Below the pieces are notes generated by a model. That model was not told the DNA's origin. It saw only the letters and a program-made list of their open reading frames with translations, and ran no database searches. From Eledone cirrhosa (Eukaryota): a stretch of 64,000 nucleotides of DNA. Below, one piece after another: positions 21,781 through 60,817 of the stretch. The stretch is from assembly GCA_964016885.1 (NCBI GenBank), contig OZ024741.1, positions 390,910,001-390,974,000 of the forward strand, given 5' to 3'. Every line of letters starts with the position of its first letter. The stretch's first letter is position 1. The position numbers and the translations under genes were made by a program.

Positions 21781-24700
21781 AGTTGCATTTATCTTGCTTT
21801 ATGTTCATACGAGTTATCACCAAGTCACAACCAGTGACCTCAAGAGACAACAAGGTCCGCCATGTTCAAGAAAGAACATACATATTCACACATGCATCTT
21901 TAGTGTTTAGACTTGTGATGTACTTATATTGACAGAATCTTCCTTAGTATATGGGCAGTTCCCATTAGTACTATCTTTTGTATTTCTCCTTTACGCGGGT
22001 TTCCTGGGATTTGCGATATGTAATCATTAGACCCCTTAGGTATCATTCCCAGAGCGCCTACAACCACTGGTATTGTTTTAGTTCTCAATTTCCACATTTT
22101 TCCAATTTCTATCTCCAGGTCCTTATACTTGCTCAATTTTTCAAATGTTTTTATAGATACATTCTTGTCTATTGGAACAGACATATCAATTAGCAGGCAT
22201 ACCCTCTTTTTAAAGTCTTTCAATATTATATCAGGTCTGTTTGCATCTATTTTTCGGTCTGTTTGGATGCTAAAGTTCCACAAGATTGAGATGTGATCTT
22301 TTTCAAGTATGGGAGGTGGTTGATGCTCCCACCAATTCTTTTGATGGGGCAGGTCAAAAGGCTTACACATTATCCAATGTATGTATTGTGCAGCTCTGTC
22401 ATGCCTGTTTAGGTATTCGGTTGGAGCTATAGGACTGCACATTGAAATTATATGGTCAATGGTCTCTGGTTGTTTTTTGCATACACGGCATAATGGGCTG
22501 CACCCATTTTTTATTATGTTGGCTTGGTAATTTTTTGTTGGCAGACACTGATCTTGTGCTGATATAATCAGTCCTTCAGTCTCCGATTTCAGTCCAGAGG
22601 ATGCCAACCACTGATGGGTTAAAGTTTTGTCAACATCAGGATTGTTAGCTCGCTCTGGGTATTTTCCATACAGAGGCTTTTCTTGCCATTTCTTAGCCAG
22701 TTTCTGTAGCAGTTCTTTCTTTGCAGTTACTTTTACCTGCTTTGCTTTTTCTGTGTTTTCCATTTCAGCAGTAAATGGGACTTCTGAAATTTGTAGTCCA
22801 TTACTGTATCTTTGTGCATCTTTTGTAATGGAATATGATCTTTTGATGCTTTCGTGTTTCAAAACGAGTTTGATCATCCAATCATGTGATTCCCTTAGAT
22901 ATGTAGATAATCCAATTGTTGCAGTTTTCAACGCAATGTCTAACTGGATTAACCCACGCCCTCCTTCTTTCCTAGGGAGATATATTCTATCTATATCTGC
23001 TTTAGGGTGATGCATTTTGTGCATGGTTAAGAATTTTCTAATTTTTGTATCGAGCCTACGGATCTCTGTGCTTGACCAGTTGATGACATTGTAACTGTAG
23101 GTTACTACTGGTATGGCAAGGGTGTTTATGGCATCGATCCTATTCCTTGCATTCCACCCCGTTCTTAAGATTGCTCTTACTCTGCGGTAACATTCCTTCC
23201 TTATCCTTTCCCTCATTGTCGAGTGCTTGATTCCGTCTCCTTCACAAACACCTAGATATTTGTAAGTTTTTTCTTGATCAAGTTCTCTTATCACGTTCCC
23301 CCGATCAAAATTAATGTCTGAACTCTTCAGCAGCTTTCCTCTGGTAAACGTTGCTTTGGCGCATTTATCTAGTCCAAACTCCATTTTAATGTCATCACTG
23401 AACTGCTTCACAGTGGATAATAGCCCTTGCAATTGTTCATCATTTTTTGCAAATAGTTTCAGGTCATCCATGTAGAACAGGTGATTAATGGTTTTGTCAT
23501 AGACTTTATATCCATGTTTTGTTTCATTGAGCAATTTACTTAATGGTATAAGTGCGATGCACAATAAAAGCAGTGATAAAGAGTCACCCTGAAAAATTCC
23601 ACAATTAATATTAACTTCTCCAGCTTCCAGTGATTTTGTTTCACTATTCAAAAGGAGTGTCGTTTTCCATGTCTTCATACTGAATGACAAAAACCTCCTG
23701 ACAACGGGGGATACTTTGAAAATCTCTAAACATTTTTCAATCCAACTGTGTGGCAAACTATCGAATGCTTTTTTATAATCTATCCAAGCAATCGACAGAT
23801 TTTTGTGTCTATTATGACAATCTTCCAGTATCATTTTGTTAACCAGAAGCTGATCCTTACAGCCATATGAGCCTCGTTTACACCCTTTCTGCTCAATGGG
23901 AAATAGGTCATTTGTTATCAGGTGGTCATATGTGTATTCAGTTAGGACTGATGTTAAAATTTTATACATTGTGGTCAAGCAAGTTATCGGTCTGTAATTT
24001 TTTGGATTGTTTGTTTCATCATTCTTCGGAAGCAGGAATGTAATGCCGTTAACTAGCCATGAAGGTATCTTTTCTGGCTCCTTAACTATTTTATTGTAAA
24101 GTTGGGCTAACAGCTCATGAGACTCTGTGAAGGCATTTATCCAAAAGTTTTGTATTTTGTCTTTTCCTGGGGATTTCCATTTGCTGGTTTTTCTAAGAGC
24201 CAAGCGCAACTGTTCAACTGTTATATTTTCCCATGTTTGTTCCTCAAGGTGAGCTGTATCTTTCATTTGTCTGTCTATCCATGGGGCATGTATGTCATGA
24301 ACTTTTTCTTCGGCCCAGATCTTTTCCCAGAATTCTTGCACTTCCTCCTTGGGTGGTATTGAGTTAGCAGTTATTGTTGACTTACCAATTTTTCTGTAGA
24401 AGTTTCTTTGGTTGTTTTTGAACATATTATTGTCCTTATAGAATCTAGATCGTTTTTCAAAGCGCCTTATACGAGCAGCTTTGGCCGACACTTTTTGCTT
24501 GATTATTTCTATCAGCATGTCTATGTCACTTGTTGATTTTATACTGTTTAGTTTGTTTAACATGTTCACCTACTTTATAGTTTGTTAAAATTTCTATGTC
24601 AGATCGGAGAAGGTTTATTTGGCGATTGATGTTCTCTTGCCAAGTAGATTTCTTGTGGGAATTCCTTTGTTTTTTCATCTTCACTCCACATAAGTGAGTG

Positions 24701-25805
24701 GTGACTTTAGCCGATGCATAATAGAGATGATTTAAATCAGTAATGTTTAGTTTGTTTGTGATGATAATGTTTTTGAGAATTATGTTAGTCTTGTGTATTA
24801 TCTTTTGGTTCTGTTTGGAGTTCTGGATCTTAGGGAGGGTGTCTCGTTGCCCCATGTCAGATTCTTTCATTTTCATCCATTCGATCATAATTTCATCCTT
24901 CAAGTTGGCAAGTTCATTCTCATTCATTTCTTTATCATTTACGATCTCATTATTTTCATTTGGAGTTTCATCCTGAGCATGCACTCCTTCCACTTTTTCG
25001 ATCCTTTCTTTAATTTGTTCTGTTGCCAGTGATTCCGCCCCAACCCTGGGATTCGAAGTGTTACAGTTTACCTCGTTTTCACTGACACATGTTTCATTTT
25101 CCCTTCGCTGACTTTGTGCTAATAGCTTGATCTGATCAATTTCTATATTAGTTAGTAACTTTTTTCTTACAATATTTCTTCGTATATTGGCTAGTTTGTT
25201 ACTGTCAATATAGCCTCTGTTTTCGGGATGTTTCTTTTTCCAGTTGATATATGTCTGTTCTGTATTCGATGTATTTGATGGGTAGTACATGGCAGTGTAG
25301 AAAGCCTCAAGGACTTCTTTATTATCTTCCCTTGACCATTTTCTCTCTTTTTCTTTGGATTTCTTGGTGGTGAGCATGGAGGGCCAACAGTAGGAGTATT
25401 CCGGTTATGGGAGGTCTCCAGCTCCGAAGTGATGGGAAGGTTTGAACCATTAGCTGATTTTTCGACCCCAGTCTGGTTCCTCTCTGAGGGACGCGGCCCT
25501 TTTTTACCCGGGTGACAGCCGATCCGGTATGAGATTTTATCATTAGACATTTACTTTATTTTGTTGCGTTTTATCCTTATCCGCCAAGGGGTAATCATTT
25601 CGTGTTACCACTTCTAGAACGAGTGTCAACCAAGACTAGAGGGGTCGTTCTCCCCTAGAGACACGGCTATTCCCCGCCGGCCGCCATCCCGGTATTTCTT
25701 GGTCATGGGGTTTTCTTTTTGTTGTTTTTTTTAAAATTGTTATTATCATGAGTGGTTCCTTAAAATTGTTATTATCATGAGTGGTTCCTCATTGCGTGGC
25801 TTAAG
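21780..25805 (-). mobile_element. Full-length R4/Dong family A retrotransposon with lesions in the N-terminal part
   Basis: ORFs 25191-25550, 24526-25377 and 21924-24569 reconstruct one polyprotein; 5'UTR with a 30-bp tandem duplication at 25731-25790. Confidence 0.94.
21924..24569 (-). pseudogene. DongA RT-CCHC-RLE open frame (881 aa), separated from its N-terminus by a small deletion/frameshift
   Basis: LFYMDDLKLF, CRVCKKQPETIDHIISMC, RHD, RPDIILKD-LLIDMSVP. Confidence 0.9.
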
Positions 25806-37264: not shown

Positions 37265-39262
37265 TTACCTTACTTCTCGTAGGGGAAGGACGGCTTTTCC
37301 ATCCTTTTCACTGCTTGTGGCCTCCTCAGGAAGGATGTCCTTATAAATCCTCCTGGAGAGTGCTTGTCGGAAGTCTCCGATGTCTTTGGGGAATTTTTGT
37401 TTTAGTGTCATGTACGTTTTCTGTGTGATGCGAGTGATTTGTATGTGTGGAGGTGGTGTGAATTTTGGGGTTGTTGTGTAGTCTTTTTCTGTGATGCTGG
37501 TGTTGTGTTGGATGTAGTGTAATAATTGCTTGTTGTTCAAATTTAATGCTGTGTAGTGTGTATCGTTTTGGTTGTTTTGTTTTGTTTGCGTTTGTTGTGG
37601 GTTTGTTTCTGTTTCGTATTTTGGTGACTTTTGTGGTGTAGGTGATGGTGGTGCTGGGGATAATGATGGTGATGGTGTTGGTGTTTGGGTTGATGGGGTT
37701 GGTGATGCTGGTGTGGATGGTGGCATATCTGTCCTAACTTTTTTGTTTCTTAGTTTATTTGTTTCCCTCTGTATTTTGTTTTTGGAGGAGGAAGGAAGAG
37801 AATTTTTTCTTTTTTGGTTTCTTTTTTTTTTTCCGGATATCGTTTCCCACTCCTCGTCGTCACAATCTGTCTCCAGTTGTGATAGGCCGGGGAGTGGAAA
37901 ATCCTCCACAGCCGTTAGTTTTGGTTGTGGTGTGGTGGATGGTGTAGGCGCTGGTGCTAGTTCTGAAGCGTTGGGTGGTGGTGGTGTTGATTTTGCTGGT
38001 GGTGGTAGTGGTGTTGGTTTTGCTACTGTTGCTGGGGTTGTTGCTGTTATAGTTGCTTCTGTTGTTGTTGCTACAGTTGTTGCTGGCATCTCTGCTACTG
38101 GTGGTGTTGATGGTTGTGTCACTGGGGTGGGTAGGAGAGGTGGCCTCAACCTTTTAGCCTGAGGGCAGAAAGCCCTTAGGTGGGTTTCTTCACCACAAAC
38201 GACACACCTAGGTCTTCTGCCCTCGACAATTACCGTGAGGTGGCTGCCGTCAGTGAGGTCTATTACCTCTGGGATCTCCTCAATGCTTTTTTGGTCCGCT
38301 TGGATCAGGAGCTCCATCCCAGATCCGGACCAGTTTTCCTGCTTTTCTTTTGCTATTGTTATTATTTTCGTGTTGGCCTCGATGCCGGCGATGACAGCCG
38401 CTATTAGCCAGGGAATTTCGATGGCCGGTGGAACGTGGGTCACCCTGATCTTTACGAGTCTCTGGCCACAATAGCTTGGGACGAGTGTGAAGTCGTCACT
38501 TTTTAATGGGGCCATGGAGTGTTCTCTAGCCTCCTCTGGTGTTTCAAAGAACACATCCACGGTTCCATACTTTTGCCCACGTCTGATGTGGGTTTTTCTT
38601 GCCCACACATGTCCCAAAGCTTTTTGGATTTGGGACTCGGATGCCCGTTCCACTCGGCGCGATTTTACATTTATTGTTCTATACGACACGGTGCACAGGC
38701 GCCGATGCTCCATTTTATTAGGTGGGGGGGGGGGGGGGGGGGTGAGGCTGACCCTGTACCCATCTTTCTTTACCATTTGTTTGGCATTTTCTAAATCTTC
38801 TTGAGTTACCGTGAACGCTTCGAATTGTTTTGCTACTCTGGCGAAACTGAGGGTCGGTTTTATAATGTCATTGTTGTTGTTGTTGCTATCGTTAATATTA
38901 ATTTTAGTTTCAGATGTGGTGATGGTGACGTCAGTCGTCTTTGGTGCGGAAGAGTCCATTTTGCTTGATTTCATTTCGACATCACGAGTTAATATATTTT
39001 TTTCTTCTTTTGTTTCTGTTGTCGCGGTGGTGGTGGGGGTGGTGGTTGTCGCGGTGGTGGTGGTGGTGGAGGCTTTAACACCTGCAGTCATTGGTAATGG
39101 CGGGAAATGAATGTCTGCCTGAGACAAATTTAAAATATTGCTACTGCTTATATTTTTTTTTGTGTTGGCAAACGTAGTAACATTTACAATGGTGGTGTCG
39201 GTGTGAGGTGTTATTTTGTGAGGAAGGCTTTCAGCTGCTTCGTGCAGAGGGGAATTAGCCAT
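37265..39262 (-). CDS. Tx1 ORF1 (Gag-like nucleic-acid-binding protein, 665 aa) with CCHC zinc knuckle
   Basis: Intact ORF upstream of ORF2; CVVCGEETHLRAFC (CX2CX4HX4C); T/P-rich linkers. Confidence 0.9.
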   Translation of the reverse strand: MANSPLHEAAESLPHKITPHTDTTIVNVTTFANTKKNISSSNILNLSQADIHFPPLPMTAGVKASTTTTTATTTTPTTTATTETKEEKNILTRDVEMKSSKMDSSAPKTTDVTITTSETKININDSNNNNNDIIKPTLSFARVAKQFEAFTVTQEDLENAKQMVKKDGYRVSLTPPPPPPPNKMEHRRLCTVSYRTINVKSRRVERASESQIQKALGHVWARKTHIRRGQKYGTVDVFFETPEEAREHSMAPLKSDDFTLVPSYCGQRLVKIRVTHVPPAIEIPWLIAAVIAGIEANTKIITIAKEKQENWSGSGMELLIQADQKSIEEIPEVIDLTDGSHLTVIVEGRRPRCVVCGEETHLRAFCPQAKRLRPPLLPTPVTQPSTPPVAEMPATTVATTTEATITATTPATVAKPTPLPPPAKSTPPPPNASELAPAPTPSTTPQPKLTAVEDFPLPGLSQLETDCDDEEWETISGKKKRNQKRKNSLPSSSKNKIQRETNKLRNKKVRTDMPPSTPASPTPSTQTPTPSPSLSPAPPSPTPQKSPKYETETNPQQTQTKQNNQNDTHYTALNLNNKQLLHYIQHNTSITEKDYTTTPKFTPPPHIQITRITQKTYMTLKQKFPKDIGDFRQALSRRIYKDILPEEATSSEKDGKAVLPLREVR

Positions 39263-39534: not shown

Positions 39535-39536
<2 letters not shown>

Positions 39537-39796
39537 TTTCTTTATTAACCACAAGGGTTTACATAAAGTAGACATTAAGGACAGTGCAGGACAATGCAGG
39601 ACGGTACAAATGGGCATTTCTGCGTGTAAAAAAACAAAAACAGAGGATGTAACAAAAATAACAATGAAAATAACAATGAAAAATTCCCCAATAGGGGGGA
39701 GACTTCGGAGGGACATTTGTGGAGAAAGCCCAGTAAAAAGCCACAATGACCCTGACCACCAAGGCAAGTGCCCTCTCCCAGTTTTCCACCTTTAGT

Positions 39797-42700
39797 TTAC
39801 AGATATATACTCAGAGTCGGCCCATTCACCTGGGCCATTCTTGCTTCTCTCACCCATCTTTCAACAAAATGCTGGGAAGAGAGCACTTCCTTCTCTACTC
39901 TGATTTTCCTTTTCAAATGAAATTTGAAAAAGTCAATCAGAGCATCACCGAAGAGGTAAGTGCTCGTCTTCAGCCCTTTCAAACGTGTCCACCATACTAT
40001 CTCTTTCGCCATGGCCACCAGGCAGATAAAAACTGCCTGCCCTTCCCGGCTAAAGGAGGAGGGCGGGGCAATCCTCACGATGGACTCAGATGATAGCCGG
40101 ATCCGTCCTAAACGCGACAGCAGGTGTTCGACATAAACCCACAAGTCAGCAATTTTCGGACACTGGACGAGTGCGTGCAGGACGGTTTCGTCGCCCTGCG
40201 CGCATCTCGGACATGCCCGGCTGACGGCACCTCCATGCCTGTAGAGTTTATCCCGAACTGGCAAGGCTCCTCGGTAGCACTGCCAGGCCAGAGATTTCTG
40301 GAAGTTGTCCATAGGCCCTGGCCCGAAAGTTCTTCCGAAGAGATTGGTTAGTTGATTTTCGTCGACGCCTAGAGTTTCCCCAAGTACGTCGTCGCTCTTA
40401 CCCTCCACTAATCCTCTATAGAACGCCGAGGTGGAGTTTCCACCGATCACATTGCCCGATTGGTCGAGGGCTGTGAGCGCCTGAAGACATTCCAGTCTCC
40501 AGGCGCTCCCTCTCGGTCTTCGCTTGACCCAGGACTGCAGCTCCGTCAAGGAAACGAGCTGGGGAAACACGCGTCTAGCAAACGGCGACCACACCTGATC
40601 ACCGTCGAGGAAGAGGTGGAGATGTCGTAGCCTGAGCGCGTGCCTGCGCATCATCAGCCACGGCATGCCCAGCCCTCCACGTAGCGGGTGTTGACAACAG
40701 ATGGACCGCCTGACCATCGGAGCGCGTCCCTTCCACAAAAAGCGAAAGAGCAAACGCTCCAGCACAGTCAGGCGAGGCTTAGGACAAGGTACGACGGTCA
40801 GGCGGTAGTAGATGACGGACGCGATGTACGCGTTAGCCACCTCCGCTCGACCTTTCAGGGATAGCTTCCTCTCGGCCCATTTCTGGGTGAGAGAAGCCAC
40901 CCTGCTCGTCACCTCGTCCCAGTTTTTGTCCGTCTGGAGGTCCGGACCGAACCAGACCCCTAGCAATTTAACCGGTCCGTCCGTCCAGCGTCCGACGACG
41001 CTGTTGGACGGCATGGACCTGCCTCTCCAGGTGCCGAGCTGCAGGCCCACTGACTTTTCCTGGTTGATCATTGCTCCTGTCACCGCTTCGTATTCTCTTA
41101 GTGTAGTGCCGATCGCCTCGATGTGTTTGGCGTTCGACACCACTACGGTGACATCGTCCGCATATGCTGATACGGATCTTCCGCATCCTAGTTCGCGCGG
41201 GACCCCCCTCAACGTCTCCAGTTTGTGCAGTAATGGCTCGAGAGTCAATACGTACAAGAGGGACGAGAGGGGACATCCTTGGCGGACCGAGCGCATGATG
41301 TTGAACGGTTCCGACAGGTGACCGTTCACTCTCACCACAGAGCAGATGTCGCTGTGCATGGCAGCGATCCAGCCTCTGAAGACGGGCCCAAAGCCAGCCG
41401 CCCTCAGGACTGCCGCTAGGTAACGATGGTCGACCCTATCGAAAGCTTTCGACTGATCTAAATTGATCAAGAACCCACCCGTGCCAGGTTCCCTAGCTAC
41501 CCTCTCTACGATGTATCGCATGAGGTGGAGGTTGTCGTGGATGGATCTGTCGGGAATGGCGCATGTCTGCGCCTCTCCCACCAGACCACCAACGACAAGC
41601 GCCAACCTCTTTGCTAGCACCTTGGCCAAAATCTTAAACTCTGTGTTTAGCAGAGTTATGGGCCGGAAATTGTCTATGTTATCCCCCTTGTTCGGATCCT
41701 TTCTCAGCAGTGCCACCGCTCCTCGGCTCACAGAACTGGGAATTCTCCCGTTCTGTTGCCAGTTGCAGTAGACGTCCGCCAAGAGGCCTCCGAACAAGTC
41801 TGGCATCTGTACGTAAAGTTCATAGGGCAGACCATCCAAACCAGGCGATTTACCCCTTGTGCAGCCAGTCATTGCCTCCCTTACTTCAGCGGCTGTTATC
41901 GGCTTTTCGCAACACTTCGCCTCAGTGGCCGAGAGCCGCGGCAGTCCGTCGAGGTAGACACTAAAGTCCATCCCTCTACCCGGCCCCCCGCTGCCCCCGA
42001 ACAGTTGAGCGAAGTGTCGCTGAAAAGCTTCACACATTTGCCCGGGATCGAGTAGCATGCGCCCGTCGTGGTCCACCAAAGACCGGATCGTGGCTTTGTT
42101 GCCACGACGCGCCTCCGCCACTCGGGCCCATTGAACGGCTTTCGTCCCCTCGTGTCTGAGAGTACGCACCCTAGCTCTGACAACGCAGCCTTCGTGCTTT
42201 GCATTGAAGAATTGGTCAAGGGCCAATTTCGCCGCAAGCACGTCGGTCGCAATGCCTTTGCTAAGCGCCTCGTCTAATTTTCTAACTAGTTCTCCCTCTG
42301 CTCTATTTTTCTCTATTGCTAAAGCCTTACTAAACCTAATCGATTCTATTCTAATCGCTCTTTTCAGAGCAAACCACCACTTGTTGTTGACGATGGCCCC
42401 CGTCAACGCCCGCTTAACTAGTTCGCTAATCCGGTCTCTGTAGGCCTTGCGCGCTGGTAAGGACGCGTTTAGCTTCCAGTAGCCGGGTCCTCGTCTATGA
42501 AGCCTATCTAAGTCAAGCACACAGGTCACGAATTTGTGGTCCGTGTAGCTGACTATCTTGAATTGTGGACAGCCTATGCTAGACCTATCTATTTCCCTAC
42601 AAAATACTCTATCTAGATATGATCTGGATGACCCTATGCGGTTTGTCCAAGTCCACATTGGCACATTCGGGAAATCCAATCGGTACCTGTCAGACAGTTC

Positions 42701-43216
42701 AAAACGCCTGAGCAGGTTGGTGAGGCTCTTGCACCCTCCACCCCTATCCGCTAATCCCACACAGTCCCAGCGTGCATCTAAGATCCCGTTCCAGTCGCCC
42801 ACTAACACTAAAGAGCGGGACGTTCCAAGAAAGGTCTCCAGACGCCGGAAGAAATCAGGCCGCCCTGCTCCTGTCGGGGCATAGACGGCCACTAGCCTGA
42901 AAGCTTGCCCGTCTCCGCTGGTCACGTCCAGCACCACCAGCTTACCCTCTGGGTCCAGGAAGATGGCCCGTATGGCGAGATCAAAACCTCTCCGAAAAAG
43001 CACAGCAACTCCTCCACCCGATCCAGGACGGCTGGGAGATGCGTACACATCGTAGCCGCCGAAGATCGGTGCGAAGGCCCGTGCTTCGGAGATTCTGGTC
43101 TCGCTGATGGCCACTACATCTATGTTTAGTGACCTGAGGTCGTTGAGCAGGTGACCCTGCTTCCATGACGACCCCAAGCCACGCGCATTTATGCTGCCTA
43201 TTCTGAGTGAGGTCAT
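39797..43216 (-). CDS. Tx1 ORF2, 1139 aa: APE endonuclease + reverse transcriptase + C-terminal CCHC
   Basis: GSINARGL, ISETR, VYAP, GDWN, SYLDR, TDH; KSPGLDG, NFRPITLLN, DQSKAFD, SVRQGCPLS, AYADD; CPRCAQGDETVLHALVQC. Confidence 0.96.
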   Translation of the reverse strand: MTSLRIGSINARGLGSSWKQGHLLNDLRSLNIDVVAISETRISEARAFAPIFGGYDVYASPSRPGSGGGVAVLFRRGFDLAIRAIFLDPEGKLVVLDVTSGDGQAFRLVAVYAPTGAGRPDFFRRLETFLGTSRSLVLVGDWNGILDARWDCVGLADRGGGCKSLTNLLRRFELSDRYRLDFPNVPMWTWTNRIGSSRSYLDRVFCREIDRSSIGCPQFKIVSYTDHKFVTCVLDLDRLHRRGPGYWKLNASLPARKAYRDRISELVKRALTGAIVNNKWWFALKRAIRIESIRFSKALAIEKNRAEGELVRKLDEALSKGIATDVLAAKLALDQFFNAKHEGCVVRARVRTLRHEGTKAVQWARVAEARRGNKATIRSLVDHDGRMLLDPGQMCEAFQRHFAQLFGGSGGPGRGMDFSVYLDGLPRLSATEAKCCEKPITAAEVREAMTGCTRGKSPGLDGLPYELYVQMPDLFGGLLADVYCNWQQNGRIPSSVSRGAVALLRKDPNKGDNIDNFRPITLLNTEFKILAKVLAKRLALVVGGLVGEAQTCAIPDRSIHDNLHLMRYIVERVAREPGTGGFLINLDQSKAFDRVDHRYLAAVLRAAGFGPVFRGWIAAMHSDICSVVRVNGHLSEPFNIMRSVRQGCPLSSLLYVLTLEPLLHKLETLRGVPRELGCGRSVSAYADDVTVVVSNAKHIEAIGTTLREYEAVTGAMINQEKSVGLQLGTWRGRSMPSNSVVGRWTDGPVKLLGVWFGPDLQTDKNWDEVTSRVASLTQKWAERKLSLKGRAEVANAYIASVIYYRLTVVPCPKPRLTVLERLLFRFLWKGRAPMVRRSICCQHPLRGGLGMPWLMMRRHALRLRHLHLFLDGDQVWSPFARRVFPQLVSLTELQSWVKRRPRGSAWRLECLQALTALDQSGNVIGGNSTSAFYRGLVEGKSDDVLGETLGVDENQLTNLFGRTFGPGPMDNFQKSLAWQCYRGALPVRDKLYRHGGAVSRACPRCAQGDETVLHALVQCPKIADLWVYVEHLLSRLGRIRLSSESIVRIAPPSSFSREGQAVFICLVAMAKEIVWWTRLKGLKTSTYLFGDALIDFFKFHLKRKIRVEKEVLSSQHFVERWVREARMAQVNGPTLSIYL

Positions 43217-43251
43217 GTTTAAAATAGAGTGGAAAAGATGGGAAAGACCAC

Positions 43252-45348
43252 TTACCGTACTTTTGGTAGAGGAGGGATGGTTTTTACATCCCTTTTCACT
43301 TGATCGTCTGGTGAAGGGACCGTTGAATCGTCCCTTCGGCTGGTCGTCGGCTTTTCTAAGAGAATGTCTGAATATACTCTTCGATTGATGGTTCCTCCTA
43401 GGTCCCTGAAATCACCAACTGCGTTGGGGAATTTCGTTTTAATGTTTGTGTATTGTTTCTGTGCTATTTTTAGCAGTCTTATGTTAGTTGGCGTTTTGAT
43501 TGGTGCTGGTATTATGTAGTCCTGTTGTGAAATGTCTGTGTGTTCAATTATGTAAGTCATTAGTTTCTTGTTGTGTGTGTTTATTGCCGTGCATTTGTTT
43601 TTCTGGGGGTGGGGTGTGGTTCTGCTATTTTCTTGTCGTTGTTGCTGGGTGTGTGTGTTTTGTTGTTGTGTTTGCGATGTTGGTGCTTGTGGTGGTGGTG
43701 TTGAAGGTGTTGTTGGCGGTGGGGTTGTCGCCGGTGGTGATGGTGGTGCTGGTGTGGGTGGTGATGGTGTTGGTGGTGTTGCTGCTGTGGGTCTCTTTGC
43801 AGTAGACTTTACCCTTTTCTCATTTCTTTCCTCCCTTTTCAAAGGCGACGATGCGCTGCTTCTGCGTTTGTGCCTTCTTACGACCTTTTGCCATCCCTCT
43901 CCCACCTCACACTCCATGTCTGATTCTGTAAGGTCGGGGAGGGGTACCAGCTCCACTCTTTCACTTGTTGTTGTTGGTGATGTTTGCACTGGAGTCTCTG
44001 TTGCAGCTGCATTTGGTATTGCTGTTGTTGTTGTTAATATTTCCACTGCTGCTGCTGTCTTTGATTTCCGTGGAGTGGGTATGGGTGCCACGGACCTATC
44101 GTTCCTGGTTGCCGCTTGTCCTGTTGCTGGTAGCTGTGGAGCCGGATTCGGAAGGAGGGGGGTTTTCTCCTTTCTCAGGGTCTTCTCGTTGCAGAAGGCC
44201 CTGAGGTGAGTCTTCGATCCACAGCGAAAGCATTTCGGGCGTTTGCCCTCAACACTTATGGGCAGTTGAGTGCCGTTATCGAAGTCTATCACATCCGGGA
44301 TAGCTTCGATGCACTCCTGGTTGGTTTGGATTAGCATCTCAATGGAGGAGCCGACCCAATCTTCTCTTACTTTTTTCTGTACTTGCAGTACAGTTGTTTT
44401 GTCCTCGATTCCGACGAGGACAGACGCGGCCAGCCAAGAAGGGGTCATTCCGGGGGGGACGTGGGTCAGTTTGACCCTCACAATTTTTTGCTCGCAGTAG
44501 GAGGGCACCAACACCATTTCCTCGCTCCTTAGGGTCACTACTGATTGGGCCTTTGCCTCCTGGGGTGTGGCAAAAAGTACGTCTACGGTGGCGTATTTTT
44601 TGCCTCGGGTGATGTGCGTTTTCCTCTGCCACACAGACCCCAAGGCTTTTTGTATTTGGGCCTCTGTGGCTCTTTCCACCCTACGGGATTTTGTACTTAC
44701 TGTACGGTACGTGACCGTACAGTGCTCTTGGGTTTCGAAAAAATTTTTCGCTGCCTTGCAGATTGCTCGGTGTCCGTTCTTTGTCACCATCTTCTTCGCT
44801 TCCTCTAATTCCTCATTTGTTATGAGGATTGTTTCCAAGTTTTTCGCAATACCTGCAAATGAGATTGGTTTTTCTCTGTTGTTGTTGTTGTCGTCAGAGC
44901 TGCTGGTACTTTTGTTGTTGCTGCAGGTACTACGACTACTGCCTCCGCCGCTGTTGCTGTGGTTGTTGTTGGTGTTGCTGCTGCTAATGCTGTTGTTGTT
45001 TATGCTGCTGGTGATGCTGTTGCGGCTGCTACTGTTGTTTTCATTGTCACTGTTGCTGTTGTTATTACGGCTGCTACTGCTATTATTCCTGACGTCAGAC
45101 GAATGAACTGGGTTTTCGTATTTCCCGCACACCTGTTTCGTCGCTGTCGTCGTCGTCGTGGAGAAACCTTGCACGCTTTGCACGAGACTTTTCTTTTCTT
45201 TCGTCACTTGCGAAAGAGAAGGGAGGGAGAGAGACACATTTAAAGAAGGGAGGGAGAGAGACAATCTTCTCTCTGCTGTAGTGATGATTGAGGAAGAAGA
45301 AGACGGAATGAGTGGGAGTGACGTATGAAATTTCTTTTTCGTAGCCAT
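43252..45348 (-). CDS. Tx1 ORF1 (698 aa from first ATG, MATKKK...) with CCHC zinc knuckle
   Basis: CFRCGSKTHLRAFC; core alignable to the ORF1 at 37265-39262; S/N- and P/T-rich linkers. Confidence 0.9.
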   Translation of the reverse strand: MATKKKFHTSLPLIPSSSSSIITTAERRLSLSLPSLNVSLSLPSLSQVTKEKKSLVQSVQGFSTTTTTATKQVCGKYENPVHSSDVRNNSSSSRNNNSNSDNENNSSSRNSITSSINNNSISSSNTNNNHSNSGGGSSRSTCSNNKSTSSSDDNNNNREKPISFAGIAKNLETILITNEELEEAKKMVTKNGHRAICKAAKNFFETQEHCTVTYRTVSTKSRRVERATEAQIQKALGSVWQRKTHITRGKKYATVDVLFATPQEAKAQSVVTLRSEEMVLVPSYCEQKIVRVKLTHVPPGMTPSWLAASVLVGIEDKTTVLQVQKKVREDWVGSSIEMLIQTNQECIEAIPDVIDFDNGTQLPISVEGKRPKCFRCGSKTHLRAFCNEKTLRKEKTPLLPNPAPQLPATGQAATRNDRSVAPIPTPRKSKTAAAVEILTTTTAIPNAAATETPVQTSPTTTSERVELVPLPDLTESDMECEVGEGWQKVVRRHKRRSSASSPLKREERNEKRVKSTAKRPTAATPPTPSPPTPAPPSPPATTPPPTTPSTPPPQAPTSQTQQQNTHTQQQRQENSRTTPHPQKNKCTAINTHNKKLMTYIIEHTDISQQDYIIPAPIKTPTNIRLLKIAQKQYTNIKTKFPNAVGDFRDLGGTINRRVYSDILLEKPTTSRRDDSTVPSPDDQVKRDVKTIPPLPKVR

Positions 45349-45579
45349 GTTTTTTTGTTTAAAATGAAATTTTGGGTACAAAACCCCAATAACTGGTTAT
45401 TTAACCCCGAAGGGCCAAATAACGGACAGAAAGACCCCTCTCACGAGGAGGAGGGTGTCTTTATCAACAATTTGGTTCAAGTTTTAAACAATTTACAATT
45501 GTTTTAACGGTTAAAAATTACTATACCTTACAGAGCCGAGCCTCCGTCAACCATGGCATTCAATAATAATAATAATAAT

Positions 45580-48500
45580 GCTCACATTAAGGAATCACTC
45601 ATGATAATAACAACTTAAAAAAACAACAAAAAAGAAAACCCCGTGACCAAGAAATACCGGGATGGCGGCCGGCGGGGAATAGCCGTGTCTCTAGAGGAGA
45701 ACGACTCCTCTAGTCTTGGTTGACACTCGTTCTAGAAGTGGTAACACGAAATGATTACCCCTTGGCGGATAAGGATAAAACGCGACAAAATAAAGTAAAT
45801 GTCTAATGATAAAATCTCATACCGGATTGGCCGTCACCCGGGTAAAAAAGGGCCGCGTCCCTCAGAGAGGAACCAGACTGGGGTCGAAAAATCAGCTAAT
45901 GGTTCAAAGCTTCCCATCACTTCGAAGCTGGAGACCTCCCATAACCGGAATACTCCTACTGTTGGCCCTCCATGCTCACCACCAAGAAATCCAAAGAAAA
46001 AGAGAGAAAAATGGTCAAGGGAAGATAATAAAGAAGTCCTTGAGGCTTTCTACACTGCCATGTACTACCCATCAAATACATCGAACACAGAACAGACATA
46101 TATCAACTGGAAAAAGAAATATCCCGAAAACAGAGGCTATATTGACAGTAACAAACTAGCCAATATACGAAGAAATATTGTAAAAAAAAAGTTACTAACT
46201 GATATAGAAATTGATCAGATCAAGCTATTAGCACAAAGTCAGCGAAGGGAAAATGAAACATGTGTCAGTGAAAACGAGGTAAATTGTAACACTTCGAATC
46301 CCAGGGTTGAGGCGGAATCATTGGCAACAGAACAAATTAAAGAAAGGATCGAAAAAGTGGAGGGAGTGCATGCTCAAGGTGAAACTCCAAATGAAAATAA
46401 TGAGATCGTTAATGATAAAGAAATGAATGAGAATGAACTTGCCAACTTGAAGGATGAAATTATGATCGAATGGATGAAAATGAAAGAATCTGACATGGGG
46501 CAACGAGACACCCTCCCTAAGATCCAGAACTCCAAACAGAACCAAAAGATAATACACAAGACTAACATAATTCTCAAAAACATTATCATCACAAACAAAC
46601 TAAACATTACTGATTTAAATCATCTCTATTATGCATCGGCTAAAGTCACCATTCACTTATGTGGAGTGAAAATGAAAAAAACAAAGAAATTCCCACAAAA
46701 AATCTACTTGGCAAGAGAACATCAATCGCCAAATAAACCTTCTCCGATCTGACATAGAAATTTTAACAAACTAGAAAGTAGGTGAACATGTTAAACAAAC
46801 TAAACTAAGAAAATTGAAAAGAAAATACAGTATAAAATCAACAAGTGACATAGACATGCTGATAGAAATAATCAAGCAAAAAGTGTCGGCCAAAGCTGCT
46901 CGTATAAGGCGCTTTGAAAAACGATCTAGATTCTATAAGGACAATAATATGTTCAAAAACAAGCAAAGAAACTTCTACAGAAAAATTGGTAAGTCAACAA
47001 TAACTACTAAATCAATACCACCCAAGGAGGAAGTGCAAGAATTCTGGGAAAAGATCTGGGCCGAAGAAAAAGTTCATAACATACATGCCCCATGGATAGA
47101 CAAACAAATGAAAGATACAGCTCACCTTGAAGAACAAATATGGGAAAATATAACAGTTGAACAGTTGCGCTTGGCTCCAAGAAAAACCAGCAAATGGAAA
47201 TCCTCAGGAAAAGACAAAATACAAAATTTTTGGATAAATGCCTTCACAGAGTCTCATGAGCTGTTAGCCCAACTTTACAATGAAATAGTTAAGGAGCCAG
47301 AAAAGATACCATCATGGCTAGTTAACGGCATTACATTCCTGCTTCCGAAGAACGATGAGACAAACAATCCCAAAAATTACAGACCGATAACTTGCTTGAC
47401 CACAATGTATAAAATTTTAACATCAGTCCTAACTGAATATACATATGACCACCTGATAACAAATGACCTATTTCCCATTGAGCAGAAAGGGTGTAAACGA
47501 GGCTCATATGGCTGTAAGGATCAGCTTTTGGTTAACAAAATGATACTGGAAGATTATCATAATAGACACAAAAATCTATCAATTGCTTGGATAGATTATA
47601 AAAAAGCATTCGGTAGTTTGCCACACAGTTGGATTGAAAAATGTCTAGAGATTTTCAAAATATCTCCCGTTGTCAGGAGGTTTTTGTCATTCAGTATGAA
47701 GACATGGAAAACGACACTCCTTTTGAATAGTGAAACAAAATCACTGGAAGCTGGAGAAGTTAATATTAATTGTGGAATTTTTCAGGGTGACTCTTTATCA
47801 CCGCTTTTATTCTGCATCGCACTTATACCATTAAGTAAAATGCTCAATGAAACAAAACATGGATATAAAGTCTATGACAAAACCATTAATCACTTGTTCT
47901 ACATGGATGACCGGAAACTATTTACAAAAAAATGATGAACAATTGCAAGGGCTATTATCCACTGTGGAGCAGTTCAGTGATGACATTAAAATGGAGTTTG
48001 GACTAGATAAATGCGCCAAAGCAACGTTCACCAGAAGAAAGCTGCTGAAGAGTTCGGACATTAATCTTGATCGGGGGAATGTGATAAGAGAACTTGATCA
48101 AGAAAAAACTTACAAATATCTAGGTGTTTGTGAAGGAGACGGAATCAAGCACTCGACAATGAGGGAAAGGATAAGGAAGGAATGTTACCGCAGAGTAAGA
48201 GCAATCTTAAGAACGGAATTGAATGCAAGGAATAGGATCGATGCCATAAACACACTTGCCATACCAGTAGTAACCTACAGTTACAATGTCATCAACTGGT
48301 AAAGCACAGAGATCCGTAGGCTCAATACAAAAATTCGAAAATTCTTAACCATGAACAGAATGCATCACCCTAAGGCAGATACAGATAGAATATATCCCCC
48401 TAGGAAAGAAGGAGGACGTGGGTTAAACCAGTTAGACATTGCGTTGAAAACTGCAACAATTGGATTATCTACATATCTAAGGGAAGCACATGATTGGATG

Positions 48501-49592
48501 ATCAAACACGTTTTGAAACACGAAAGCATCAAAAGATCATATTCCATTACAAAAGATGCACAAAGATACAGTAATGGACTACAAATTTCAGAAGTCCCAT
48601 TTACTGCTGAAATGGAAAACACAGAAAAAGCAAAGCAGGTAAAAGTAACTGCAAAGAAAGAACTGCTACAGAAACTGGCTAAGAAATGGCAAGAAAAGCC
48701 TCTGTATGGAAAATACCCAGAGCGAGCTAACAATCCTGATGTTGACAAAACTTTAACCCATCAGTGGTTGGCATCCTCTGGACTGAAATCGGAGACTGAA
48801 GGACTGATTATATCAGCACAAGATCAGTGTCTGCCAACAAAAAATTACCAAGCCAACATAATAAAAAATGGATGCAGCCCATTATGCCGTTTATACAAAA
48901 AACAACCAGAGACCATTGACCATATAATTTCAATGTGCAGTCCTATAGTTCCAATCGAATACCCAAACAGGCATGACAGAGCTGCACAATACATACATTG
49001 GATAATGTGTAAGCATTTTGACCTGCCCCATCAAAATTGGTGGGAGCATCAACCACCTCCCATACTTGAAAAAGATCACATCTCAATCTTGTGGAACTTT
49101 AGCATCCAAACAGACCGAAAAATAGATGCAAATAGACCTGATATAATATTGAAGGACTTTAAAAAGAGGGTATGCCTTCTAATTGATATGTCCGTTCCAA
49201 TAGACAAGAATGTATCTATAAAAACATTTGAAAAATTGAGCAAGTATAAGGACCTGGAGATAGAAATTGGAAAAATGTGGAAATTGAGAACTAAAACAAT
49301 ACCAGTGGTTGTAGGCGCTCTGGGAATGATACCTAAGGGGTCTAATGATTACATATCGCAAATCCCAGGAAACCCGCGTATAGGAGAAATACAAAAGATA
49401 GTACTAATGGGAACTGCCCATATACTAAGGAAGATTCTGTCAATATAAGTACATCACAAGTCTAAACACTAAAGATGCATGTGTGAGTATGTATGTTCTT
49501 TCTTGAACATGGCGGACCTTGTTGTCTCTTGAGGTCACTGGTTGTGACTTGGTGATAACTCGTATGAACATAAAGCAAGATAAATGCAACTG
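45580..49592 (+). mobile_element. Full-length R4/Dong family A retrotransposon, several lesions
   Basis: ORFs 45799-46752, 46814-47935, 47847-48302, 48351-49448 reconstruct a polyprotein of about 1200 aa; (AAT)n at both ends. Confidence 0.94.
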
Positions 49593-50193: not shown

Positions 50194-51885
50194 TCAAGGA
50201 ATAAATTTACGCTTCTTTGTGCACCGTGAATGTTGAGCAACAGGAGTATCTCGTTTTAAACACCAGCAATAGTCTGCCATCATTACGACGTCCCAACATC
50301 CTTGGTACCGAGTTTCCATCTCCTTGATGCCCTGATGGAATCGTTCGCCTTGTTCATCGCTAACATCTCCGAGATTTTCAGGAAAACGATCAAGATGACT
50401 AAAAAGATAATGCAGTTTGATGCTCATATTCGCGCCAATATAACGAAAAGTTGATATCAAGTTGGTAACAAGGTCTTTATAGTTTTCACTTCTGTGTTTG
50501 CCAAGGAAATTTTGCACTACTTCTGCAAAGGCTAGCCAAGCTGATGCTTCATTTTCGCTCATCGTTTTCACGAAATTTGTGTCCTTCAAGAGCTTACGGA
50601 TCTGTGGTCCATCAAAAATCCCTGCTTTAAGTTTTTCAATCGTCAAGTCTGGAAATACACTGCAGATATACTTGAAGCACTTCCCATTTTTGTCAAAAGA
50701 TTTGACGAATTGCTTGATCAATCCGAGTTTGATGTGCAAAGGGAGGGAAATGATCTTATCTCGCTCAACTAAAGATTCTTCCAATATATTGGCAGCTCTA
50801 CACGGAGCCATATTTGTTCGAGGCGGCCAGTCTTTCTTAACATAGTGGTTTACTCGGTCTCTACTGTCCCACATGCAAAGAAAGCACAGGTATTTGGTAT
50901 AACCAGATTGCTGTCCCATGAGAAAATTCACCATCTTTAAGTCAACGCAGATGACCCATTTATGATCATGATACAGTATCTTCCCTAAAACCAACTTAAA
51001 TTCTTCATATTTTTCCTTCATAGTTGTTGAGTGGCCGAGAGGGATAGAACCATACACATTGCCGTTATGCAACAATACACATTTTAAACTACGCTTAGAG
51101 CTGTCTATGAAAAGACGCCATTCCTCTGGTTTGTATTCTTCAATGCCAAGTTTATTAAGAAGCCCACTGACATCTCTGCAGTAAACCAACTCTTCCTCTT
51201 TTGTGAAGAAAGAAAGGAACTCTTCATGCCGACTCCGATAAACGGTTATACGGACACCATTCTCTAGAATATTCCTCTCTTTCAGTCGGGAAGCCAGCAG
51301 TTCTGCAGAATTTTTTGGGAGGTTCAAGTCACGAACTAAATCATTCAGCTCTACCTGGGAGAATTGCTGAGGTAAATTCTCAACTGAAAAGTCTTGATCT
51401 CTAGTGTCACCTTCAGGTGATGAATCTTCTTTGGCTGAGGGTAAAGTTATCTGAGGCAAGACATTGAAGACAAGAACAGGAAGCTCTTCACTGTGTGGAA
51501 CCGGTCTAATAGCAGAGGCAAGATTAGGATAGACAAGCGTTTGTCGATTTTTCCGGCTAATACCCTTCAAATTTAGGTTACAAAAATAGCAGTCGTCCAC
51601 GTAATTATAGGGCTCCCTCCATACCATTGGTATAGCAAACCTCATACTTTTCCTTGTCCGTTTAGTCCATTGTCGCAAATGTTCTGTACATTGTTTGTAG
51701 ACACTATGCGGTGCCGAATATTTATCTTGGTCTCCCAGCTTGACCCCAAAATATGCCATATACGCTCTTTCAACAAAATCAATAATGTTTATTCGATTTT
51801 CAGGTAATGTGTATTCTCCACAAACATAACAAAACACATTTGGAGAATTTACGCAACACTTTCTTGAAGAGAATATCTTGCTCAT
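50194..51885 (-). CDS. Chapaev3-like transposase, 563 aa, open but with substitutions at usually conserved sites
   Basis: N-terminal FCYVCG / WREP..DDCYFC zinc motifs, WRLFIDSSKRSLK, DLKMVNFL, LHIKLG, FDGPQIR, SDEQGERFHQ, MMADYCW. Confidence 0.78.
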   Translation of the reverse strand: MSKIFSSRKCCVNSPNVFCYVCGEYTLPENRINIIDFVERAYMAYFGVKLGDQDKYSAPHSVYKQCTEHLRQWTKRTRKSMRFAIPMVWREPYNYVDDCYFCNLNLKGISRKNRQTLVYPNLASAIRPVPHSEELPVLVFNVLPQITLPSAKEDSSPEGDTRDQDFSVENLPQQFSQVELNDLVRDLNLPKNSAELLASRLKERNILENGVRITVYRSRHEEFLSFFTKEEELVYCRDVSGLLNKLGIEEYKPEEWRLFIDSSKRSLKCVLLHNGNVYGSIPLGHSTTMKEKYEEFKLVLGKILYHDHKWVICVDLKMVNFLMGQQSGYTKYLCFLCMWDSRDRVNHYVKKDWPPRTNMAPCRAANILEESLVERDKIISLPLHIKLGLIKQFVKSFDKNGKCFKYICSVFPDLTIEKLKAGIFDGPQIRKLLKDTNFVKTMSENEASAWLAFAEVVQNFLGKHRSENYKDLVTNLISTFRYIGANMSIKLHYLFSHLDRFPENLGDVSDEQGERFHQGIKEMETRYQGCWDVVMMADYCWCLKRDTPVAQHSRCTKKRKFIP

Positions 51886-58300: not shown

Positions 58301-60817
58301 CTTCTATCAGTTACTCCCACACAATCCCACCATGTGTCTAAGATGCCGCTCTAGTCCCCCGTTAACAGTAATGGACGAGAACTTTCCAGAAAGGCTTCCA
58401 GGTGCCTAAAGAAATCCAGCCACCCAGCCCCGATCGGGGAATATACGGCCACCGGTCTAAAGGCACCACATTCACTATTTCTCCCGTCCAGGACCACCAA
58501 CTTACCGTCTGGGTCCAGGAAGATCGACCTTACCTCGAGATCCAGGACTTTCCTAAACAACACTGCCACCCCACCTCCCATTCCCGGCCGACTAAGAGAT
58601 GCAAAGATCGATAGTCGTCAAAAATGGGGGCTAGTGCGCACTTGTCGGAAATCCTGGTCTCACTGACATTAACTACATCCATATCTAATGAACTGAAGTG
58701 GTTCAGCACGTGACCTTGCTTCATGGACGACCCCCAGGCCACGAACATTCAAGCATTCCACTCTTAAGATGGCCATGTTGACAGGCTAAAAGGGAGAGGA
58801 AAGGTCTACTTACCCCCCACAGGCTTGTGTAGGTCGGGTGTTTCGACCTCCGTGGTTGATGGGGTTTCCTTTAAAAGTCTTGAGGTGGGTTTCACATTCG
58901 TGGTTCCCACGTCCAGAGGAAAGCTCCCTCTAATCCCTTCATAGGAACCGAATTACATTCACAACAGTAGTAAATCTTCTGGCACGCAAAATGTGCTCGT
59001 TCCACATGTCACCCACCTTTTCTATTTCTTGCCTTCGTGCAATTTAGCTTACTAGCACGGAGTTATGTGTCTTGTTTTGTTATTGTGTTTGTTGTGGTTG
59101 TTTGCATTTGGGAGATTGTGGTGGTGGTGGTAGTGGTGGTGTTAGTGTTGTTGTGGAAGTGTTTGTGTTTGTTGTGTGTGTGGTGTCTGCATTTTCTGTT
59201 GTGGGTGTGTATGATGCGTGGAGTTTTTTTTTTTGTGCTTTTGTTTTTTTGCTTTTAGCTTTGTTTCATCTTCGCAACTGGAAGACGGGGTTTCTGAGTC
59301 TGGAAGTGTCTCTGTGTCTCTGTGTCTCTGTCTGTGCTTGCGTTTGTGTCAATGTGTGTATTTTTGAGGGTGGGGGAATGGTAGAGCTTTTCATGTCTCC
59401 CTCCTGGGCGGTCAACTTTGGTGGTTGCGTTCCGTTGATGTTGGTGGTAGCCCCCTCCCCGGCAGCGGCATCAACGGAGGATTGTGGCCTCCTGCACTTT
59501 TCAGTTGTGGACAAAAGTCTTGCCGGTGTGTAGCTTCACCACAAACGAAACAGTGTGGCCCTTTAGCTTCCGTAATTACCTGAATTTCATACTCGTCCTG
59601 TAGTTTAAAGTGGTCCGGGATATTTTTGATGTATTCGCGTCTGATTTTGAGAAGAATCCCCAAACCAGTCCTGGACGACCTCTCCTTTTTGTAAATGCGA
59701 TGTCGAGGAGGGTGTCAGGGCCCTCTGTCGTCATGCCTCTCTGAAGCCACCATAGGTCTAGTGCCGATGGAATCCTAGGAACACGGACCCTTACTGTCCT
59801 CCTTCCCATGTAGGAGGGGTACATGATTATTTGTTCCATTTTGCAGGGGACCACAGAATGCTTGATAGCAAGGGCCTCAGCTTTGAAGAGTACCAAAATA
59901 TTCCCAAATTGTCTGGCCCTTGCTATATGCTCGGTGTCATTATTGATGCACTTTAGTGCAGCCTCTACTTGACCTTGAGAGGTTATCTTGGCTTTGCGAG
60001 ATTTCAGAGAAATGCATCTATATTTCAGCGCTCTCCTCTCCTTTGCTGCCATCACCTCTGCCGGGAAGTTTAAGTTGGCCCAGGTCATTTCTCTAGTCAT
60101 AATCGTTTCCACCTTGGCCAAACGTTCATTCTTTTCTGTTAGATCAAAGTTTTACAGAGTTTGACTCTTAGTCGCTGTGGCTGCGAAAGTACTCCTGAAT
60201 ACGTTGTTGTTGCTGCTATTGTTGTTGTTCTTTTTGTTGCTGCTGTTTTGCTGCTCTTTACTGTTGTTCTTGTTGTTGTTGCTATTGTCGTTGTTGCTAC
60301 TGTTGTTAGTGTTGTTATTTTTGTTCTCATTTGTGTTTTCACTGTTCTTGGTGTTTTTATTGTTGTTGTTGTCGTTTGTGCTGCTTAATACTGCTTAATG
60401 TGATGTTGGTGTTCATAATGGTTGTGGGAGGGCTGTGTTACTCCACTCGATATTTAAGACGCTGTCACGTGACAGCTGACTTAATGAGAGGAAGCGTATT
60501 CCATGTTTTATAAAAAAAAAATATATGGCTCAAATATTTGGGACCAAGACTCAAATTTTATGGCGAGTCCCTTCTTGAGGACAAAGACTGCAGTCCTTTG
60601 CCCCTTTTGAAGCAAAACTGTGTGGTGGACAAGGTTGAAAGGATTGAAGACGGACACTTTCCTCTTCGGCGAATCCCTGATTAAGTTTTTCAAGTTTCAG
60701 TTGAAGAGGGAAATCAGGGTGGAGAGGCCAGTGCTGTCAACAACTAAAGGATTTAAATACGTTAAGATTACAAACTTACACGAGCTTACGATATTACGTC
60801 TTTTCACTTCAAACACC
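55398..60817 (-). mobile_element. Older, divergent full-length Tx1-clade LINE (copy 3), decayed, with its own ORF1 and 3'UTR
   Basis: ORF2 pieces 55650-58776 (start MAILRVECLNVRGLG), ORF1 pieces with CFVCGEATHRQDFC, (AAT)n at both ends. Confidence 0.9.
60590..60740 (+). mobile_element. Short Tx1 ORF2 C-terminal fragment inserted antisense into the 5'UTR of copy 3
   Basis: WWTRLKGLKTDTFLFGESLIKFFKFQLKREIRVER, closest to the subfamily at 62150-62300. Confidence 0.8.

Follow-up and report, generated by a model that had tools for sequence, protein, structure and literature searches.

Why should copies of a two-ORF LINE in the genome of Eledone cirrhosa carry a 5' splice site at the very end of ORF1, immediately ahead of ORF2? 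LINEs require a long, A-rich and intronless RNA, and splice signals are usually harmful to them. Three such sites occur in the window (the whole stretch of 64,000 nucleotides that was analysed), and a preliminary description proposed that they open a micro-intron whose removal fuses ORF1 and ORF2 in frame. The retention of a near-perfect U1 site through three frame states suggests that U1 has been recruited for a role other than splicing, and the more striking claim of an ORF1-ORF2 fusion is unlikely.

Element copies in the window

The features of the three copies are as follows (a slash marks the exon-intron boundary of the donor motif).

39535..45561, minus strand: whole element, copy 2, with leader, ORF1, spacer, ORF2 and a 3' UTR with AATAAA; (ATT)n runs at both sides
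43252..45348, minus strand: ORF1 of copy 2, 698 aa, intact
43250..43258, minus strand: donor motif ACG/GTAAGT of copy 2 (subfamily A2), a U1-complementary 5' splice site on the ORF1 stop; phase 2
43217..43251, minus strand: inter-ORF spacer of copy 2, 35 nt, a pyrimidine tract (82% C+T) and then the ORF2 start context AAAC ATG
39797..43216, minus strand: ORF2 of copy 2, 1139 aa, intact, with endonuclease, reverse transcriptase and zf-RVT
43203..43204, minus strand: candidate acceptor AG in ORF2 codon 5 of copy 2; phase 2
43199-43198, minus strand: candidate second AG in ORF2 of copy 2, 5 nt downstream of the codon-5 AG; phase 1
37265..39262, minus strand: ORF1 of copy 1, 665 aa
37263..37271, minus strand: donor motif AAG/GTAAGT of copy 1 (subfamily A1), on the ORF1 stop; phase 2
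58806..58816, minus strand: donor motif GGG/GTAAGT of decayed copy 3 (B4 lineage), with the ORF1 frame end GGT AAG TAG; phase 1

ORF2 matches the Pfam families Exo_endo_phos, RVT_1 and zf-RVT above cut-off and has human L1 ORF2p as its best solved relative, and a Pfam search with ORF1 of copy 2 returned zero families above cut-off. Copy 1 has a spacer of 34 nt, an ORF2 ATG at 37230 and an interrupted ORF2, in which the longest ATG ORF is 36693-34012. The ORF2 ATG of copy 3 lies at 58776 and neither of its ORFs is intact; the decayed ORF1 frame ends in ...PDLHKPVGGK* with the stop TAG at 58808-58806 (tblastn with a related ORF1: 63% over 68 aa, E 2e-18).

The minus-strand sites AG/GTAAGT (37268), CG/GTAAGT (43255) and GG/GTAAGT (58813) were all located where they had been placed, a pyrimidine tract, the ORF2 ATG and the codon-5 AG follow the donor in each of the three copies, and the same candidate intron lengths of 52, 53 and 51 nt were obtained for copies 1, 2 and 3. 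It had further been claimed that each donor contains the ORF1 stop TAA and is in phase 2, allowing an in-frame fusion every time. This holds for copies 1 and 2 (ORFs of 665 and 698 aa), where ORF1 does end at the TAA within the donor, which is therefore in phase 2, but not for copy 3, where the stop is TAG; since the ORF1 frame ends at that TAG, the donor is in phase 1 and a join to the codon-5 AG would not preserve the frame. The ORF1s had also been regarded as very different, but two of those in the window are homologous (52% identity over 229 aa), and because copies 1 and 2 also have almost the same spacer, the three sites in the window are not independent.

Conservation of the donor motif

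The conservation of GTAAGT is borne out by a wider sample, in which a donor that agrees with the consensus at 6 or more of 7 positions lies ahead of 120 of 131 distinct ORF2 starts, compared with 0.5% of shuffles; 26 loci chosen for odd junctions were excluded from this count, and up to 12 included loci had been retrieved with a pattern containing the donor. The motif is retained in three deep lineages, all from one genome, that are ~0.7-1.2 substitutions per fourfold-degenerate site apart. Across 10 representatives of these lineages, fourfold-site identity between lineages is 0.41-0.53 and 8 of 57 fourfold columns (14%) are invariant, while the donor has G at -1, G at +1, T at +2, A at +3 and T at +6 in all 10. 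The variants observed (GTAGGT, GTAATT and GTGAGT) are all ordinary donor variants that retain the exonic AG or CG, and the motif is a strong 5' splice site. Matched against the 5' end of U1 as encoded by the host itself, it forms 7-9 Watson-Crick pairs of 11 (8-9 if G-U is counted) in 10/10 representatives, and this complementarity appears to be under selection. Donor-intact copies of family A alone number 4,290.

Similar motifs occur elsewhere in the elements. Of the 14 elements having an assigned 5' end, 8 have GTRAGT at 30-90 nt from that end, and an equally strong donor within ORF2 (+244 to +271) in 8/17 elements is one for which codons alone can account. Leader uORFs with a stop overlapping a phase-2 donor were considered and set aside, as only some B2 and A2 copies have them. 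No distant relatives with DNA context were found among metagenome or viral contigs, and a query with a 38%-identical protein gave the same family type as top matches (12 loci retrieved, classified in part).

Donor phase and acceptor region

The donor phase differs between amplified subfamilies, being 2, 1 or 0 over an unchanged acceptor region, which contradicts the idea of a micro-intron with conserved phase that yields a Gag-Pol-like fusion. An in-frame fusion is possible in A1, A2, B1, B2, B3 and D. C1 is in phase 1, though the acceptor region CTCAGAATAGG is common to C1 and A; B4a is likewise in phase 1, though TAAGAGTAGG is common to B4a and B1-B3; and the B4b subfamily, with 198 exact copies, is in phase 0. 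Donor and acceptor phases were accordingly found neither conserved nor co-varying. The candidate introns span 41-67 nt across subfamilies, with only 41-42 nt in B2/B3, and the spacer measures 23-49 nt in most subfamilies and 9 nt in the phase-0 subfamily. As the motif persists through these changes of the ORF1 frame, what is constrained is the nucleotide sequence itself, and neither the codons nor an in-frame join.

This bears on neutral inheritance, in which a stop after an Arg codon made a donor by chance that was then copied along. The common ancestry of all lineages, the four bases that G-TAA supplies in phase-2 families, the small number of deep lineages (three) and the incomplete saturation of neutral sites would all allow it, but the motif is found where the stop has shifted (phase 1 and 0), beside a spacer of variable length and directly downstream of sequence that is unalignable across lineages, and few fourfold columns have stayed invariant; we therefore consider chance persistence quite unlikely.

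The acceptor side is less distinctive. The codon-5 AG, which had been put forward as conserved, is no better kept than other Arg codons (of 16 all-Arg columns, 9 have AGR throughout), and the TCAAC/TAAAC motif taken for a branch point is simply the context of the ORF2 start codon, which reads GCCCAC in B1. Acceptor and branch point were thus not found to be kept beyond coding need, the branch-like motif being missing in B1. A second AG, 5 nt 3' of the codon-5 AG, is present in 10/10 representatives. A strong acceptor (polypyrimidine/CAG; 39621-39620 in the window) lies in the 3' UTR of the A group, to which it is confined, and no partner acceptor is conserved across lineages.

Searches for spliced products

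Retrotransposed copies lacking exactly the proposed intron were sought in the genome and no precise one was found: none in family A against its donor-intact copies, of which about 86 would be expected to be spliced at the human L1 rate (~2%), none in B1/B2 and none in C1. One family-A locus (L065) was rejected since its spacer is present, and a B4 locus (L192) carries a deletion from the donor to 1 nt beyond the AG, with 3-nt microhomology and out of frame. Of six copies with odd sequence ahead of the acceptor, five proved to have small deletions and one to be joined to foreign sequence, and the two odd copies that might have derived from the B4 leader donor are both small deletions. No ORF1 relatives of 1223-3490 aa, the size of fused proteins, were found, which is weak evidence.

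Contig sets of unrecorded kind were also compared with window positions 39545-43660. No joint skipping 43203-43255 occurs among the 15 listed of 1,015 (four sets), a result that speaks neither for nor against splicing since contigs drop rare forms, and the spacer is contained in one X1 contig (41510-43660), one X5 contig (42357-43371) and an X6 contig (43190-43660), all from runs of unrecorded kind, the X6 depth being 3'-biased like RNA.

Splicing of a 41-67 nt micro-intron into a fusion mRNA, with the unspliced RNA as template, is very unlikely on the genomic evidence. Six subfamilies are in frame for it, the phase-1 families could take the second AG, and in short insect introns a pyrimidine tract can lie between the donor and the branch point. 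These points are outweighed by the phases of C1, B4a and B4b over acceptor regions shared with in-frame families, the 41-42 nt length of the B2/B3 introns, the start-context nature of the supposed branch motif, the failure to find a precisely intron-less copy and the fact that splicing would remove the well-kept ORF2 AUG context. If anything even less probable is a version with rare, regulated splicing, in which phase-2 families would use the codon-5 AG, phase-1 families the AG 5 nt on, and the phase-0 subfamily stop readthrough or helpers; with unspliced RNA as the sole template that the fusion protein copies in trans, no intron-less copies would arise.

The donor might alternatively be spliced to a distant acceptor, giving an ORF1-only mRNA that is rarely copied, like the short gag RNA of copia/EVD. 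The position of the site exactly at the ORF1 end, the 3' UTR acceptor of the A group and the EVD precedent (PMC5580714) speak for such a transcript. That acceptor is missing from B1-B4, however, and 0 genomic copies join the ORF1 end to it. Searches for the donor exon joined to other sequence, each estimated to detect roughly 40-55% of arbitrary acceptors, gave 11, 4, 1 and 0 matches, which are small indels, inversions and unrelated matches, without a spliced product. We regard an ORF1-only mRNA as unlikely.

A proposed U1 site without splicing

Given that a near-perfect donor is kept, that no spliced copy was found and that the reading frame is variable, the reading we favour, though tentatively, is that the end of ORF1 carries a conserved U1-complementary site that is left unspliced and protects transcription over the full length, while ORF2 is translated from its own start codon. 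A U1 snRNP-binding element had been offered in the preliminary description as the alternative to splicing, and it is compatible with the data; U1 binding and its effect on transcription are what we infer. U1 snRNP would bind the site with no splicing to follow, and the bound U1 would suppress premature 3'-end formation and so permit a full-length bicistronic RNA. The pyrimidine tract and the CAAC-ATG-G context would serve initiation of ORF2 at its own AUG, probably in the manner of L1 and SART1, through termination-reinitiation or internal entry.

No cryptic poly(A) signal close to the site is conserved, positions differing by family; AWTAAA does occur within 500 nt upstream, but about as often as chance would give (2 against 1.1 expected, and 2 against 1.4). 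Base pairing between the site and the pyrimidine tract that follows it is predicted, clearly exceeding shuffles in C1 and B4a, and could block U1.

It is also conceivable, if somewhat unlikely, that selection concerns another ligand, the likeness to a donor being incidental; the motif might, for example, be bound by a DNA-binding factor at an internal promoter or act as an RNA signal in the reinitiation of ORF2. The motif always lies 4-30 nt from the ORF1 stop and 27-53 nt upstream of the ORF2 AUG, local hairpins are predicted, and there are parallels in the conserved donor of human L1, which is a RUNX3 site (PMC5860796), and in the RNA structure required near the stop-start of SART1 (PMC5972666). 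Against this, all variants remain ordinary donors with their exonic AG or CG, no conserved hairpin was found around the site, and a hairpin better than shuffled spacers (p<0.05) is predicted in only 3/15 sequences.

Comparison with known elements

The U1-site strategy that we propose is demonstrated for plant copia LTR elements. U1 at a conserved donor prevents premature termination of the unspliced genome RNA of Arabidopsis EVD, and EVADE and other Ty1/copia elements resemble the present one in having a conserved U1 site near the structural gene end, where U1 protects unspliced RNA (PMC5580714). EVD differs as an LTR element whose polyprotein occupies one frame and whose spliced gag RNA has been demonstrated (PMC5580714), whereas the present element is a two-ORF LINE without a conserved acceptor and with no splice product seen in genomic copies.

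Human LINE-1 shares a homologous ORF2 (E 1.6e-52) and a short inter-ORF spacer (PMC5860796, PMC2896524, PMC5972666). It also carries a conserved and mostly unspliced donor, whose rare splicing leaves about 2% spliced copies; this donor, located in the 5' UTR, is explained by a RUNX3 DNA site and not by U1 (PMC5860796). In the present element, by contrast, the donor lies where ORF1 ends and spliced copies were not found. SART1 likewise has a bicistronic LINE RNA on which translation of ORF2 presumably begins at an AUG of its own, but its stop and start overlap (PMC5972666), where the present element has a 23-49 nt spacer (9 nt in phase-0).

No report of U1 protection at a LINE junction, and none of an inter-ORF donor motif in Tx1-clade LINEs, was found in the literature searched. 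The family is highly active, with thousands of copies, many of them with intact ORF2, and the site is short, so that its role can easily be tested.

Tx1-clade LINEs are known for microsatellite targeting of the Kibi/Koshi type. An APE/RT/zinc-finger ORF2, an upstream ORF1 and a 3' poly(A) signal or simple-repeat tail place the present elements in the L1 group (L1/Tx1), and their ends at (ATT)n or (TATC)n agree with the repeated-target preference of Tx1, a name that we take over from the preliminary description. For Octopus vulgaris, 13 recently active L1-Tx1 families have been listed (PMC13282606). The copies studied here adjoin their (ATT)n or (TATC)n runs often as tandem arrays.

The LINE family in the window

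The window is repeat-dense (genome 3.0 Gb), and its three LINE copies, all on the minus strand, belong to an ordinary, active and very abundant family. Genome pattern searches found the first 31 nt of the copy 2 ORF2 4,493 times without mismatch, as well as 4,604 ORF2 starts of other subfamilies. The 1139-aa ORF2 of copy 2, with endonuclease, RT and zf-RVT domains, is homologous to human L1 ORF2p, its nearest named protein match being a 62%-identical piece within an Octopus sinensis gene model, which makes a cephalopod host probable. Copy 1 comes after copy 2 in tandem, with an (ATT)n run between them, and copy 3 is decayed.

45561-39535, minus strand: copy 2
43255-45348, minus strand: ORF1 of copy 2, intact, 698 aa
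37268-39262, minus strand: ORF1 of copy 1

Both ORF1 proteins gave a weak Pfam MBD match (E 0.007-0.008, below cut-off). Target choice differs by lineage, (ATT)n for A and B4 and (TATC)n for B1-B3, and tandem arrays mix different subfamilies about 6 kb apart (loci L096-L115). Two B4b copies, L145 (the same place as L176) and L179, start at the same late-ORF1 point (codons MEVE) directly after (ATT)n, possibly through recurrent 5' truncation or as a short sub-element.

Conservation of the donor motif

The preliminary description reported a GTAAGT donor at the end of each ORF1, a pyrimidine tract and an AG in ORF2 codon 5; all are present, at donor-AG distances of 52, 53 and 51 nt. The conservation it proposed for the donor also holds in further copies and subfamilies. 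Across all sampled loci, excluding 26 chosen for odd junctions and including up to 12 fetched by a donor-bearing pattern, a donor scoring 6/7 or better lies in the 63 nt before 120 of 131 distinct ORF2 starts, whereas shuffled sequences reach this in 0.5% of cases; in family A the donor is intact at 59/60 loci. Ten representatives form three deep lineages (A/C/D, B1-B3 and B4), between which ORF2 identity is 57-72% and divergence at fourfold sites is 0.74-1.18 substitutions per site. No more than 8 of 57 fourfold columns are the same throughout, yet the donor has five positions that never vary in 10/10 representatives. This alignment points to selection on the donor, and that the motif is neutral seems improbable.

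The donor pairs with the 5' end of the host's own U1 at 8-9 of 11 positions, and is a nucleotide-level, U1-complementary motif fixed in position at the ORF1 end. That it is kept for another ligand is unlikely, though worth consideration. The genes for U1 snRNA are arrayed in tandem, repeating every ~2,674 bp (G000:C2:180973544-180995099 and G000:C1128). In literature searches outside subscription papers and Repbase entries, neither conservation of a donor where ORF1 and ORF2 of a LINE meet nor a spliced ORF1-ORF2 fusion was found reported; the conserved junction signal is real and apparently undescribed.

Reading phase and the proposed micro-intron

A micro-intron from the donor to the codon-5 AG had been proposed to join ORF1 and ORF2 in frame, in phase 2 throughout. 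By homology to a related ORF1, however, the ORF1 of copy 3 ends ...PVGGK-stop; its donor is therefore in phase 1 and the join out of frame. Across subfamilies the donor is in phase 2 in A1, A2, B1, B2, B3 and D, phase 1 in C1 (open ORF1 of 728 aa at L142) and B4a, and phase 0 in a B4b subfamily of 198 exact copies, where ORF1 continues through the donor in 12/12 loci examined and stops 12 nt upstream of the ORF2 ATG in 10/12. The acceptor region stays constant despite these changes, C1 resembling A, and B4 resembling B1-B3. A further AG, 5 nt downstream and in phase 1, could rescue the phase-1 families solely if the first AG were skipped. Judged by reading frame, a phase-conserved fusion fails, and we regard the micro-intron fusion as very unlikely.

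The acceptor side does not stand out. Among the 10 representatives, AGR is the sole codon type in 9 of 16 all-Arg columns, and the third base never varies in 8 of 19 Val/Ile columns. The supposed branch point consists of the bases directly preceding the ORF2 ATG, which vary (CCAAC, TCAAC, TAAAC, CCAAT, CCCAC) and which we take to resemble invertebrate start context. In distant ORF2 relatives the initial Met falls in roughly the same register, and several of them have no Arg at position 5. The candidate introns are 41-67 nt long; lengths of 41-42 nt fall below typical animal minima, from which the host's own may differ.

ORF1 and ORF2 share one frame with a single intervening stop in B4b, B1 and B2 (L176-L187, L105, L097), so that readthrough could fuse them; the frames of A1, A2 and B3 differ from this arrangement, and at L182 a point change has fused the two.

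Search for spliced copies

Reverse transcription from spliced RNA, given cis preference, would be expected to leave intron-less insertions. Human L1 splicing is rare, yet ~2% of copies are spliced (PMC5860796). Genome pattern searches here gave 0 intron-less copies in family A, against 4,290 with intact donors, and 0 in B1/B2 and C1; since the patterns tolerated 1-2 mismatches at most, spliced copies that are old and decayed could escape. The single family-A candidate was rejected, its spacer being still present. B4 yielded one near miss, L192, whose spacer is gone from the donor to one base beyond the AG; it shows 3-nt microhomology, is out of frame and appears to carry another deletion.

Splicing of the donor to a distal acceptor is also doubtful, if less so than the micro-intron. 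A strong acceptor-like site, polypyrimidine/CAG, stands in the 3' UTR of the A group (window 39640-39545 and ~33670-33575), followed by a ~20-codon open stretch and AATAAA, but B families are without it, and no copy joining the ORF1 end to it was found. In searches of partial sensitivity for donor or acceptor joins to any other sequence, everything found was an indel or an inversion, apart from one foreign join and one unrelated match.

A possible U1-protective role

The most likely working explanation is that U1 binds the ORF1-end motif without splicing and shields the full-length transcript against premature 3'-end formation, ORF2 translation starting at its own AUG. The HIV-1 major donor affords the same U1 protection. 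For EVD such protection has been shown (PMC5580714), and L1 and SART1 are proposed to begin ORF2 at its own AUG (PMC5972666). The lack of a conserved partner acceptor and of spliced progeny in our searches favours U1 protection, and donor-like hexamers close to the 5' end in 8/14 elements fit general U1 use. Against it, none of the poly(A) signals stands out as conserved, pairing may mask the donor, a similar donor within ORF2 is explicable by codons, and the conserved L1 donor is explained at the DNA level (PMC5860796). We therefore infer U1 binding and protection only tentatively.

Additional donor-like sites in the window and sampled loci are:

60817-60770, minus strand: copy 3 leader, donor-like hexamer 30-90 nt from the element start
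36959 and 58505, minus strand: second strong donor at +271, in the ORF2 EGKL codons (8/17 elements)
L097, L098, L100, L103, L105, L106: GTAAGT/GTGAGT in 5' leaders, 30-90 nt from the element start

Some B2 leaders have the hexamer across the stop codon of an upstream ORF of 9 codons, again in phase 2 as at the ORF1 end. The C1 spacer (L137, L148) holds a near-perfect donor complement, forming a 9-bp hairpin that beats at least 98% of shuffled spacers.

Other mobile elements

Other mobile elements lie at 16933-20325, 21924-25377, 45799-49448, 50194-51885 and 5733-6350. They include an intact 1130-aa RT ORF with RVT_1, which with its relatives presumably resembles restriction-like-endonuclease LINEs, and two ORFs that we take to be transposase-like.
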